The position numbers were made by a program, and so were the translations under genes. Positions 16,684 to 24,000 of a stretch of DNA of 24,000 bases are shown here, piece by piece; the first letter of the stretch is position 1; every line of letters starts with the position of its first letter. The stretch is from Candidatus Woesearchaeota archaeon (GTDB lineage: Archaea; Nanobdellota; Nanobdellia; Woesearchaeales; UBA11576). Under the pieces are notes generated by a model that saw nothing but the letters and a program-made list of their open reading frames with translations, searched no databases and was not told the origin of the DNA. Location of the stretch: NCBI GenBank assembly GCA_018675335.1, contig JABGYH010000001.1, positions 162,908 to 186,907 on the forward strand, given 5' to 3'.

Positions 16684-19600
16684 CTAAATCAACAAATCTT
16701 TACGATGAATTGAATTTTTCAAAATATGAGAAAAATTATTTATTTGATATTCTGTTCTCATATCTTTTGAAGTTTTTGTAATTTTGGCTCGCACATCACC
16801 ACTAACACCCCTAGAATTCACAGCAGAGTTTGAATCAATTCTACTATCAATTAAATCAGGATTGATCGCACTAACACTTTTTGTTTTTCTTGTACTTTGA
16901 ACTTTAGTAGAAGAACTATTGCTCTTTTCCGATTTAGATTCTTCTTGAGCAGCAGGAGTGTTTCCAGCACCATTTCTATCACTACAAACTGGATCAATAG
17001 GATTCATAGTTATGGACAATATCAGATTATTTTGTAATTCGACTCCATAATGTACTGCTCGATCTTTATATCCGCTCTTGATTGCTTCAACAGCATAAAA
17101 TCCAGGTTCTAAATCAAATTTCACATTCTGTGAATTAAAAGTAATTGTTTTTGATGCCAAAAGTGCAGTATCAATCCCAGTTATTATTTCATTGTTTTCA
17201 TCTGTTTCTGCATTTTCATATATGTTAACAATTACAGGACTAATCCAATAATATTCCTCACAAGAAAAAGCATTTACTCTTACTTTTAATTCTCCAGTTT
17301 CAATAGTTTCAGCTACGCATTCGCCATCTTCACAACCAAACTCACATTCTTGTTTGAGCGTATATTCAGTGTTTTCAATACAAGTAGATTCTGGTGTCCC
17401 CGCACTCAAACAAGTGTAACTTATGAAATCACCATAAACATTTTCATAAGTATTATCACAAACTAAATTATTTAACCAACCATCACTGCCACAATCATCA
17501 TCTGTTGAACAAATAGGTTCCGACCAACCACAAGCATCAGATTCTAAAGAAACTAAATCAAACTCGCATTCTCCGACCACACAACTACCTTCATAGTAGG
17601 AATAGCCCTCACAGTAATTATCACAAACAACCGTGTCGCAAGGATCACTTAAACACGCACCAGAGTCACATCCAAACTCACATACTTCTTGTAATTCGGA
17701 AACAACTTCGCAATTTTCTTGTACGTAATCTGCATAAACTTCATTTACAGATTCAGAAGAACAATAAGGTTCTAATACTTGACTTTCACAAACAGAATCA
17801 TCAAAAACATCCCCCATAATTGAAATCATAGACGGTGAATGAATTGGATTAGCCCCATAGGTGTAAGCTATTTCACCAATAAACTCATCAAACTCATCAA
17901 AAAATAATGCATTTAAGATATTACCAATGCTATCATAAGCATAATTTATGTTGTAATCCGTATCAGATTCATCCAAATCCTCAGATATTTTTTCTGCACT
18001 CATTAAACGATTCAGATCATCATACCCCATAGAGTATTCAATACTGTTAACTGCATCGGTTATACCTAACAAATTTAATACTAAATCATATTCATAACTT
18101 AAATCTTGCATTACTTCTTCTGTCGAAGGATTTTTTGTTTTTATTTCTTCTAATTTATGAATTTGACTATCATAATCATATTTGGTTTGTAATGAATTAT
18201 CATATTCTCTTAAAACAATACTTCCATGCTCATCATAGTCAATATTTGGCAATACTTCACTTATTGATTCAAGTTCTCCCTGATTATTATATTCATAATC
18301 TACAAGTTCACCATTAGGTAGCGTTTTAGAAATCACCCTATCTACATTATCATAAGTATATGAAGTTACAAAATCAATCCCATCAATTGTTTGAGTTTCC
18401 TGTGTAAGTCTTAAACGAGAATCATATTCATAGTTTTTTTCAACAACTGATGTAGTAATTGAGGATAATGTTCCTATTTTATCTAAATCATAAACATATG
18501 TGGTCATCTCACCATCTGCAGTTCTTGAAATTTCCCTATTCAAGTCATCATATTGAATAGTTACAATATTTCCTTCATCATCTTGTTGTTCAATTAAATT
18601 TCCTTCCAAGTCATAAACATAATTCCAAGTTCCAGAATTCGGAGTTATTGCAGTTATTCGACGACCAAAAGTATCATACTCATAATTAATTTCATTGTTT
18701 TGATCATCAATAACTTTTAATAATCTGCCTAATGAATCATACTCATAATTTGTTACGTATTGCTCTCCTTCATCGTATTCTATAACTTGTTTAATATTTC
18801 CATAAGCATCTTTTACATAATCATGACGAACATTATTTTGATCATAAATAGATATTGTTAATTTATCATATTCCATATTTATTTCAGACCCATCAGGATG
18901 TGTCAATTTAACAATTCTCCCAACAGGATCGTATTCATAAATTGTTTCTATATTGTACGAAACAAAATTACCAAAATTAGGACTGGAAAATAGTACAGGA
19001 TTTTCTTCACTACTTAATCTACCCATATTATCATAATGATATTGATTTAAAATCCATTGATTATTTTCAGATTCAGTTCTTGTTTCAATTAATCTTCCAA
19101 AACCACCATAATACATATAACTATCAAATGTTCCCAAACTATTTTCTTTAACTTTAGTTATAACACTCTCAGGAGCAATCCCATTAACTTCATATATGTA
19201 TTCTATGCTAGGACTAATTGTACTATCTCCTTGTCGTATTTCTTTTATTTTCCGTCCAAAAGCATCATAAACATAATTAACAGAATTACCATTCGGATCA
19301 GTTACTGAACTTAATTGTCCTGTTGAATAATCATATACATAATTTATTTCTTGATCTAATGGATTAGTTTCTTTAATCATATAAGTGAACGTAGAGTCAT
19401 ATTCATATTCAGTCTCGTGTTCATTTGGAGATATTACTGAAATTAAATTTCCATGAGAATCATAATCATAACTCACTGCAATATTTTCTCCACCGTCAAG
19501 ATTTACTTGAGATTCATAAATTAAGTCTTTGTTATTGTACTCATAATATTTGTGCAATAACAACTGATCAGATGAATCAAATATTTTATGTTCTGTTGGT

Positions 19601-23055: not shown

Positions 23056-24000
23056 TTATTTAGGAGGAATATAGTAAATTGGTTTTCCCGCATTATCAAA
23101 CAAACCTTTTTCTTTTGTTATTTTTGATTTAAGTATGTCTCCAGTTCCACCAGAGTTAAGCCAAGAGTCATATCTAACATAACCTTTCCATGTCCATTTC
23201 CTAATTGTTTTACCCAAATTTACTGCTTTTTTCAAGTAAGCATTCTCAGATAATTTACCATAGCCATGTTTCCAATAATGATATTTGAAAGAATCCTTTG
23301 CAGTATCAAACGTTCCTTTATTCCATTTCCATGCAGAACTCATCGGAGCTTTCACAACATTATTTCCTGAAAGAACTGTATTTCTTGCAGAAGACGACGT
23401 ACTTTTTCGAATTCCCGCCACAATATCATCCACCGAATTTAATGCTTTTGCATTTTTGTAAGTAACACCGGGCAAAGTTGCACATACTGCCAACAATTCA
23501 TAATCTGACTCAGACAGGGTTTCTTGTGAAAATAAAGTTTGATGTGTAAAAGTAGCCCAAACATCAGAAATATCTCCGCTAACAGGTAACATTTCTAAAG
23601 TATTACCAATAAAATCCATAACAGGTGCAACCGCATCAGCAACAGTGGTGCCAAAATCCATCACTGAATTATATGCATCTCCCGCAACATCTGCAACATA
23701 ATTGGTTGCATCTGTAACAGTATCAACAACTGAGTCCCACATCGCACCAATAGAAAAATGTCCTGATGGATCAATGTATTTGTAGGGATTGTTTTTTACA
23801 TAAGAATATTTATTTAGTGACTGAGGATTATAAACTGAAGGAATTACTGAATCAGGTTGAGTAAATTTTCTTAAAAAAGGATCATAATATCTTGCGCCAT
23901 AATAATAAAGTCCTGTTTTATCAAGTTCTTTTCCAGTGTACAAAAACTTTTCATCCCCTCCAAAAATTACTGCACCAAATGGCAAGTATCTTGTTTCTTC
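23056..24000 (-). CDS. RHS-repeat protein, 3' end only: RHS-associated core plus a 233-aa variable C-terminal toxin-like domain; the 5' part lies beyond the window
   Basis: The frame is open to nt 24000 (EETRYLPFGAVIFGG...). Core signature: FLYTGKELDKTGLYYYGARYYDPFLRKFTQPDS...NKYSYVKNNPYKYIDPSGH. The downstream sequence has no YD repeats. Confidence 0.88.
   Translation of the reverse strand, partial: EETRYLPFGAVIFGGDEKFLYTGKELDKTGLYYYGARYYDPFLRKFTQPDSVIPSVYNPQSLNKYSYVKNNPYKYIDPSGHFSIGAMWDSVVDTVTDATNYVADVAGDAYNSVMDFGTTVADAVAPVMDFIGNTLEMLPVSGDISDVWATFTHQTLFSQETLSESDYELLAVCATLPGVTYKNAKALNSVDDIVAGIRKSTSSSARNTVLSGNNVVKAPMSSAWKWNKGTFDTAKDSFKYHYWKHGYGKLSENAYLKKAVNLGKTIRKWTWKGYVRYDSWLNSGGTGDILKSKITKEKGLFDNAGKPIYYIPPK
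23059..23757 (-). other. Variable C-terminal (putative toxin) domain, family unassigned
   Basis: An acidic V/D/T-rich linker (WDSVVDTVTDATNYVADVAGDAYNSVMDFGTTVADAVAPVMDF) is followed by a globular region with the His/Lys-rich motif DSFKYHYWKHGYG and a W/K-rich C-terminus. Confidence 0.5.
23758..23772 (-). other. DPSGH motif, the predicted core/toxin boundary (DPxGL-type autoproteolysis site)
   Basis: gatccatcaggacat on the minus strand encodes D-P-S-G-H at the end of the RHS core. In characterised RHS/TcC proteins the aspartyl autoprotease cleaves just after this motif. Confidence 0.6.

Follow-up and report, generated by a model that had tools for sequence, protein, structure and literature searches.

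A core-less RHS giant and its short core-bearing neighbours in a Woesearchaeota archaeon: a probable split, Sec-exported cocoon with interchangeable lid-toxins

Two groups of RHS toxins, the TcB–TcC cocoon of the Tc (ABC) toxins and the ‘TcdB/TcaC’ class of polymorphic toxins, are among the closest described counterparts of a gene pair found in a 24 000 nucleotide (nt) stretch of DNA from Candidatus Woesearchaeota archaeon (GenBank assembly GCA_018675335.1, contig JABGYH010000001.1, positions 162,908–186,907; hereafter the window). The pair comprises a giant gene for a 2,093 amino acid (aa) protein without an RHS core and, 90 nt upstream on the same strand, a short gene (P0001) whose product bears the core and a variable tail. 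The TcB–TcC cocoon (Photorhabdus TcdB2-TccC3, Yersinia YenB-YenC2) resembles the giant in having SpvB, a six-bladed FG-GAP propeller, TcdB_midN and a large RHS shell. It resembles the locus as a whole in that its shell is made from two gene products, the second of which carries the core, two catalytic aspartates and a hypervariable toxin of 200–400 aa, and in that several alternative toxin subunits exist per shell. Among TcC proteins, 97 % are 851–1050 aa long, the core being preceded by ~600 aa of RHS shell (PMC7861908); a hypervariable region of 201–400 aa forms the C-terminus of TcC. Tc subunits are assembled in the cytoplasm and exit by lysis, according to excerpts of PMC10847048 and PMC10847046. 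In proteins of the ‘TcdB/TcaC’ class a signal peptide is followed by SpvB, then an integrin-like propeller and then RHS repeats, and the class has been noted in Euryarchaeota (Zhang et al. 2012, PMC3482391); the giant shares its domain order and export signal, and the kinds of toxin tail are the same.

Compared with TcB–TcC, the present shell is cut ~100 aa before the core rather than ~600 aa before it, the short ‘lid’ protein is only 470 aa long, both parts carry predicted Sec signals, no TcA is encoded nearby, TcdB_toxin_midC is undetected and the host is an archaeon. The giant additionally has a 300 aa insert in its propeller and a 370 aa C-terminal extension. Members of the ‘TcdB/TcaC’ class unite shell, core and toxin in one polypeptide, whereas here they are divided between two genes, the lid has gained a signal peptide of its own and further domains are present at the cut. 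In that class an immunity gene directly follows the toxin; this also holds for relatives of the present locus (L002–L006, L089 and L090) but not for the locus itself. Single-chain SpvB/propeller/RHS toxins from candidate phyla radiation (CPR) bacteria, Omnitrophica and Methanimicrococcus are homologous to the giant over its whole length, at 25–36 % identity. Because no TcA is encoded within ~10 kb, export signals are predicted, the cut falls elsewhere and the lid has half the length of a TcC, the locus is not a Tc ABC toxin; the giant belongs to the signal-peptide/SpvB/propeller RHS lineage of the ‘TcdB/TcaC’ class.

Other RHS systems can also be compared. The Rhs effectors of type VI secretion systems (T6SS) and the teneurins have a YD shell and a homologous core, but their shells are smaller, their N-terminal modules are PAAR/VgrG or FN-plug/NHL and their delivery routes are different. 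Rhs orphan cassettes lack a secretion signal and lie downstream of a core-bearing rhs gene, whereas the present lids have a predicted signal, lie mostly upstream and accompany a giant without a core. WapA is a wall-associated, single-chain RHS toxin of contact-dependent inhibition; it has neither SpvB nor propeller and is not known to occur without a cognate immunity gene. Like the proteins described here, WapA of Bacillus subtilis and Streptococcus suis is a Sec-exported RHS toxin of cells without an outer membrane and bears polymorphic C-terminal toxins (excerpt of PMC12704120). A search of the literature on DPANN or Woesearchaeota with RHS proteins returned nothing specific. The conserved two-gene form, the lid signal peptide and the prevalence in DPANN are new relative to the literature found, although Makarova et al. 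2019 may cover archaeal RHS toxins.

The principal features of the pair are:

16684..22965, minus strand: giant ORF, 2,093 aa
22882..22965, minus strand: signal peptide of the giant, aa 1–28 (sequence and hydropathy)
21976..22818, minus strand: SpvB-like N-terminal region, aa ~50–330 (PF03534)
20266..21975, minus strand: six-bladed FG-GAP propeller, aa 331–900, interrupted by an insert (FG-GAP_3, FG-GAP, six DxNGDG)
19963..20328, minus strand: TcdB_toxin_midN, aa 880–1001 (PF12256, E = 1.1e-27, 96.9 bits)
17800..19962, minus strand: YD/RHS shell, aa 1002–1722, core-less, ending YTYGANPIHSP (RHS_repeat, YD_repeat_2x)
22966..23055, minus strand: spacer between short gene and giant, 90 nt, AT-rich, no ORF
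23056..24000, minus strand: short RHS gene P0001, 3′ two-thirds (aa 157–470); full-length protein matched at 100 % identity
23758..23988, minus strand: RHS-associated core of P0001, plug and aspartyl autoprotease (TIGR03696 Rhs_assc_core, E = 3.5e-20)
23059..23757, minus strand: polymorphic tail of P0001, 233 aa, a Gly/Ala/Val-rich linker and a C-terminal toxin domain of ~90 aa

The nearest relatives of the giant, from Woesearchaeota and Nanoarchaeota, are also core-less. Most of the remoter ones, from the CPR bacteria, Omnitrophica and Methanimicrococcus, are single chains that run from SpvB through propeller, RHS and core to a tail of ~200 aa. When both proteins of the pair are placed on 62 fused proteins, the end of the giant's shell (aa ~1725) and the first mature residue of the short protein (~36) map 4–29 residues apart in 28; the others have extra repeats between the two points, and a large overlap never occurs. 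The giant's shell thus stops where the short protein starts, and the two genes are therefore read as one cocoon split in two. In core-less giants the shell ends at [YF]x[YF]..P.H[SA]P and is followed by 6–692 aa, which may include CARDB, PKD or dockerin domains. In the fused protein P0138 this motif leads directly into L.YD..GNL, which is how the short proteins start. That the core-less giants share this cut-site motif suggests a single fission event.

The pairing is conserved. A core-less giant and a short RHS-core gene with a predicted signal peptide lie on the same strand and within ≤5 kb of each other in 12 archaeal loci: the present one, that of a sister genome, L002–L006, L088, L089, L090 and the Methanosarcinales loci L008 and L009. 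The giants of L089 and L090 had been chosen regardless of their neighbours. The short gene comes first in eight of these loci and the giant in four, so the C-before-B order, which the preliminary description of this DNA had set against the bacterial order, is not a rule. The source contig (560 kb) carries, in order, an HTH_10 gene on the opposite strand, a 447 aa short gene (P0004), the 470 aa gene P0001 and the giant, with gaps of 109 and 90 nt between the three same-strand genes; the window contains the last two. There are accordingly two alternative C-like genes where one had been described. A frameshifted single gene was also considered, and is ruled out by the reversed order, the 90 nt gap and the signal peptide on each gene.

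Several loci show variants of this arrangement. At L008 (3657–11263; a Methanosarcinales metagenome-assembled genome) the gene for a core-less giant of 1,520 aa runs into the beginning of that for a core-bearing protein of 1,015 aa; the sizes are TcB/TcC-like, yet in the second protein YD repeats and core again make up the ~200 aa module known from P0001 and P0004. L090 contains a partial duplication (18897–22132) of the giant's 3′ end (620 aa) together with another short RHS gene. In the Woesearchaeota-type loci L089 (8654–9997) and L090 (8640–9854) the gene immediately upstream of the giant encodes a signal-peptide-bearing protein of 404–447 aa; LamG (Laminin_G_3) is weakly matched by the protein from L089, and no match is recorded for that from L090. 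At the bacterial loci L042, L045, L048 and L054 a long fused RHS gene is followed by short core-containing ORFs without a hydrophobic N-terminus.

The full P0001 protein of 470 aa is available from the source contig; its signal peptide and first YD repeats are encoded outside the window, as is the whole of its paralogue P0004. The 447 aa gene, the 5′ end of the 470 aa gene and the HTH_10 gene are known as proteins or from gene tables only. P0001 and P0004 share one layout: a hydrophobic signal peptide comes first, YD repeats occupy the next ~100 aa, and the core follows, with a tail of 200–230 aa behind it. The core and 233 aa tail that had been assigned to the gene upstream of the giant are thus confirmed, with the stop codon at 23056. 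The P0001 core aligns to those of YenC2 and TccC3 (E = 4e-9). Its residues D206 and D233, invariant among 82 homologues, align to YenC2 D663 and D686, which we take to be the catalytic pair, an identification attributed to Busby et al. 2013 and to Meusch et al. 2014. The structure entries TccC3-D651A and Tse15 D1369N/D1391N, which are among the structural matches, are consistent with it. Between P0001 and P0004 the YD and core module is 95 % identical and the tails 24 %; the module is 84 % identical within the short pair of the sister genome and 68–74 % in pairs across the two genomes. These identities follow the pattern of polymorphic toxins, with the conserved part evolving in concert within each genome. 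A protein database search with the short protein returned 762 relatives; among the 120 listed, most are 400–480 aa long and come from Woese-, Pace-, Nano- and Micrarchaeota.

In the AlphaFold2 (AF2) model of P0001, aa 38–230 are confidently predicted as beta hairpins plus core, and in Foldseek ~215–233 columns of it align with TccC3, T6SS Rhs proteins and teneurins, in each case at the C-terminal end. The model of the giant (aa 900–2093) is confident for the shell to aa ~1722 and poor beyond. Its best Foldseek match is the TcdB2-TccC3 fusion cocoon, over ~1,220 columns with a root-mean-square deviation (rmsd) of ~5 Å and a template modelling (TM) score of 0.60, normalized on the giant, of which one-third is disordered. 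T6SS Rhs proteins and teneurins superpose at an rmsd of 11–36 Å. Against separate chains, ~784 columns align to YenB and ~436 to YenC2. By these models the giant's shell would be of Tc type and extend well into the part supplied by TcC, covering the second half of TcB and roughly two-thirds of the TcC shell, so that the contribution of the short protein would be confined to the final ~200 residues. The split falls ~100 aa ahead of the core and does not coincide with the TcB/TcC junction.

The size agreement between the giant and bacterial TcB subunits, noted in the preliminary description, is therefore coincidental. Nor does the upstream gene correspond to the TcC half, as had been proposed, being only 470 aa long with ~100 aa of YD repeats before its core; equally, on the source contig it is a lid and not a self-sufficient SpvB–propeller RHS toxin. 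What stands of the proposed BC-like module is the set of TcB-type domains, the neighbour with core and toxin, and the DPANN host; the module is not part of an ABC complex and is cut at another site.

The domains that had been read from the giant by eye are largely borne out. The N-terminus (MKLNKTKLTMPVTILMIALILLSPVAIA/D) is hydrophobic and Sec-signal-like, as stated. SpvB (PF03534) is matched at E = 5.9e-8 and 32.7 bits (cut-off 22) only when aa 29–340 are scanned alone, and the match is partial, its best stretch covering profile positions 3–74 of 287; the family is present in most relatives of the giant. In Pfam scans of the whole protein FG-GAP_3 (E = 1.8e-21), FG-GAP (E = 7.3e-19) and RHS_repeat (E = 1.5e-41) are found. 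A regex search confirms exactly six D-x-N-G-D-G motifs, at aa 340, 396, 726, 781, 835 and 884; the propeller is assigned from these motifs and Pfam, the three-dimensional model spanning aa 900–2093. The TcdB-mid-like segment, which includes NLLKTVKSAMGGTTNINY, is TcdB_toxin_midN, and TcdB_toxin_midC has no Pfam match in the giant at E ≤ 0.01. The YD shell measures ~720 aa; YD repeats are present as claimed, with a regex count of ~20 motifs instead of ~22. An RHS core was absent from the giant by TIGR03696, a purpose-built core hidden Markov model (HMM) and motif regex alike. The giant, used as the sole query protein in a scan of GTDB genomes, gave no match.

The tail of P0001 (aa 238–470; 233–234 aa after DPSG) ends in a toxin domain with the motif FKYHYWKHG...YYIPPK. 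It has no Pfam match, and the AF2 confidence (predicted local distance difference test, pLDDT) is <50 over most of it. The second tail type (tail B: P0004, where it spans aa 245–447, P0003 and P0128) has no PDB match. Other short proteins bear tails of known kinds, among them Tox-REase-9, an RNase family (PF00545) and colicin D. At L002–L006, L089 and L090 the short gene is followed, often with overlap, by a small gene without a signal peptide, one of which, after a Tox-REase-9 short gene, is DUF4304. These small genes are probably immunity genes.

Domain content, the tiling on single-chain relatives, the conserved pairing, the conserved catalytic residues and the predicted Tc-type shell geometry lead us to favour, as the somewhat more probable account, a split cocoon that is exported through Sec and takes interchangeable lid-toxins; we infer that the parts are exported, assemble physically and enclose the tail, and likewise infer toxicity and target. 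In such a system the giant ‘chassis’ and the lids would be exported via Sec, and a lid would complete the open rim of the chassis by extending its beta-sheet, its core plugging the opening. The core would then cleave off the toxin tail, which would be kept in the lumen. One chassis would be able to carry either of two toxins, and the accessory domains may bind the target cell.

Several observations weigh against this account. Separate signal peptides would require folding and assembly outside the cell and entry of the tail into a preformed cavity, neither of which has a known precedent in Tc toxins with their cytoplasmic assembly. The signal peptides themselves, on the giant and the short proteins, were judged by eye and hydropathy only. 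The toxin nature of the P0001 tail is indicated through weak links: the profile of its tail family matches the E. coli CdiA-CT structure 8EY4_A at E = 0.37, and the P0001 tail itself matches pairwise, at E = 0.003, that of P0110, a short RHS protein of Nanoarchaeota in the same tail family. P0110 matches 8EY4_A at E = 9.5e-13, and 8EY4 is described, in a single paper, as part of an E. coli toxin–immunity pair. No immunity-type gene follows the short genes in the present locus, where neither the 109 nt gap nor the 90 nt spacer contains an ORF, in the sister genome or at L088; this could mean that the target is not self. Finally, the AT-rich 90 nt spacer could house a separate promoter, so that co-expression of short gene and giant can only be presumed.

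That the two kinds of protein share a cocoon ancestry and now have separate functions, the giant as a surface adhesin akin to teneurins, its shell empty or closed on itself, and the short proteins as free-standing secreted toxins, is unlikely but deserves consideration. The predicted signal peptide on each protein, the adhesion-type extras on the giant (Cys-rich repeats) and its relatives (CARDB, PKD, dockerin) and the possible promoter in the spacer would all suit such a division. However, ~100 aa of YD repeats plus core is too small to enclose a 230 aa tail, and the pairing is kept in 12 loci across DPANN and Methanosarcinales. The concerted evolution of the short proteins' shell module within a genome also tells against separate functions, as does L090, where the giant's 3′ end is duplicated along with a short gene; and the C-terminal extension is dispensable, being reduced to 6 aa at L008. 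It is very unlikely that the short genes represent orphan toxin cassettes or fragments in decay, retained, as in bacterial Rhs loci, so that they can recombine into a main rhs gene, and are not functional partners of the giant. Arrays of short core ORFs do follow fused RHS genes at the four bacterial loci above, and fragments occur at L090 and L010, but the bacterial orphans lack a hydrophobic N-terminus, whereas each archaeal short protein has a start codon and a predicted signal peptide of its own and begins precisely where one repeat meets the next, and lengths are uniform (390–470 aa). The giant moreover offers no core for recombination, the short genes lie mostly upstream of it and hundreds of short proteins of 400–480 aa exist in DPANN.

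The TcB-type domain set and the best structural match, TcdB2-TccC3, would also be expected of the BC part of a true Tc complex whose TcA injector is encoded elsewhere and docks on the propeller; tcC genes distant from tcA and tcB do occur in bacteria (PMC7861908). This is nevertheless highly improbable. TcA-type Pfam families are absent from the window ORFs, as the preliminary description had stated, from ~10 kb on either side on the source contig and from the same distance at the loci examined. The predicted Sec signals on both proteins conflict with the cytoplasmic assembly and lysis described for Tc toxins in the excerpts cited above, the propeller is interrupted by 300 aa, the short protein is half the size of TcC, and genomes of ~0.5–0.6 Mb (contigs of 560–609 kb) leave little room for a tcA gene of ~7.5 kb. 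The chance that the 14–24 kb segment is bacterial contamination or a chimeric assembly is negligible, even though the nearest fused relatives are bacterial (CPR, Omnitrophica). GC content is uniform and low across the window (24–36 %), and the giant, recorded at NCBI as protein HN587_00895 with an identical sequence, is flanked by the same genes on independent contigs of 560 and 609 kb (sources JGI, NCBI, ENA and Logan; source samples JGI 3300072015 and SRR3724309), from which it follows that the segment is not mis-assembled. An archaeal HTH_10 regulator stands beside the cluster in three genomes, and the closest homologues are all from Woese-, Nano- or Pacearchaeota.

A broader extension of the split, Sec-exported cocoon is proposed more tentatively, and we regard it as doubtful: that DPANN archaea and some methanogens possess an RHS nanocontainer assembled outside the cell, its exported chassis loaded in trans with separately exported lid-toxins. 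No TcA, T6SS or outer membrane would be needed, the route of release and entry would be new, and where the immunity gene is missing the target may be the host or unrelated cells. If so, loading in trans would be a cheap way for a genome of ~0.5 Mb to field several toxins. How DPANN act on hosts and competitors is little understood, and the locus offers a concrete, widespread and testable candidate weapon, short RHS-core toxins numbering in the hundreds across Woese-, Pace-, Nano- and Micrarchaeota. A second, independent split of the RHS cocoon would also indicate which part of the shell can come in trans, which is useful for engineering Tc/RHS containers for protein delivery. Fused forms in CPR and split forms in DPANN suggest gene flow or parallel needs between two ultra-small symbiont radiations. 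A caution also applies: domain content alone is insufficient to annotate such genes as ‘Tc toxin’.

The giant carries additional regions in the propeller and after the shell:

20812..21720, minus strand: Cys-rich insert between blades 2 and 3, aa 416–718, ~300 aa, 14 Cys (homology to the C-like protein of L009)
16687..17799, minus strand: C-terminal extension, aa 1723–2093, with Cys-rich repeats, a beta-sandwich and a Ser/Lys-rich tail
17260–17790, minus strand: ~70 aa Cys-rich repeats, aa ~1726–1902 (motif C-E-F-G-C-x-x-G-x-C, no Pfam model)

All 36 cysteines of the giant lie within the insert and the last 370 residues, and neither the insert nor the extension has a Pfam or PDB match. At the Methanosarcinales locus L009 (7806–10379) the C-like protein begins with a domain homologous to the insert (E = 3.6e-16); one accessory domain is therefore found on different subunits in different lineages. 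The extension has low pLDDT in the AF2 model, and its beta-sandwich (aa ~1911–1989) is weakly predicted. The ~70 aa repeat occurs in 403 representative proteins, in ≤19 copies each, together with CARDB, GH113, discoidin or Kazal domains, and looks like an undescribed extracellular repeat family. The C-like protein of L008 has ~570 aa of additional N-terminal sequence that, judged by eye, resembles lectin-type domains. As the content at the cut varies among giants and the insert domain recurs on another subunit, the accessory parts are exchangeable extracellular decorations, at the cut or in the propeller, for which a role in binding or display is the simplest reading. The Cys-rich repeats and small beta-sandwich of the giant probably serve adhesion or display.

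The HTH_10 regulator, of archaeal type, is divergent from and beside the short RHS gene(s) on the source contig, in the sister genome and at L088 (4075–4755), and is a candidate regulator of the cluster. A small Fic-domain gene is found a few kb away in two of these three genomes. Convergent with the giant, at 15532–16653 on the plus strand of the window, is a gene for a 373 aa protein with a weak C-terminal LysM match (E = 3e-4); a 405 aa gene is similarly placed in the sister genome.

The remainder of the window is consistent with the archaeal context described previously. GatD and GatE, as had been claimed, are found by profile search, as are TruD and adenylate kinase. Of the intron-containing tRNAs mentioned, one of 107 nt was located by Rfam (14104–14210, plus strand, 55.6 bits), its length suggesting an intron-containing archaeal tRNA; a second was not found, and ARAGORN, which reported zero tRNAs over the window, missed the first. 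The protein encoded at 6316–7596 (plus strand) contains the CNNM, CBS and CorC_HlyC Pfam families. CNNM transmembrane, CBS and CorC_HlyC transporter-associated domains are familiar from Mg/Co transporters. The ‘tlyC/K03699’ type, to which this protein belongs, has been listed as a pore-forming toxin in a study of DPANN (PMC9723730); given the Pfam families, a toxin label for this protein may be an over-reading. At 10450–11313 (minus strand) a 287 aa protein is encoded that has an N-terminal MazE/AbrB-type domain (E = 2.6e-7) and is far longer than a typical antitoxin. The gene previously taken for cdc48 is a complete ORF at 107–1381 (plus strand); it does encode an AAA ATPase (AAA, AAA_lid_3), and its length of 424 aa suggests that it may be of the proteasome-activating-nucleotidase type instead of a two-domain Cdc48.

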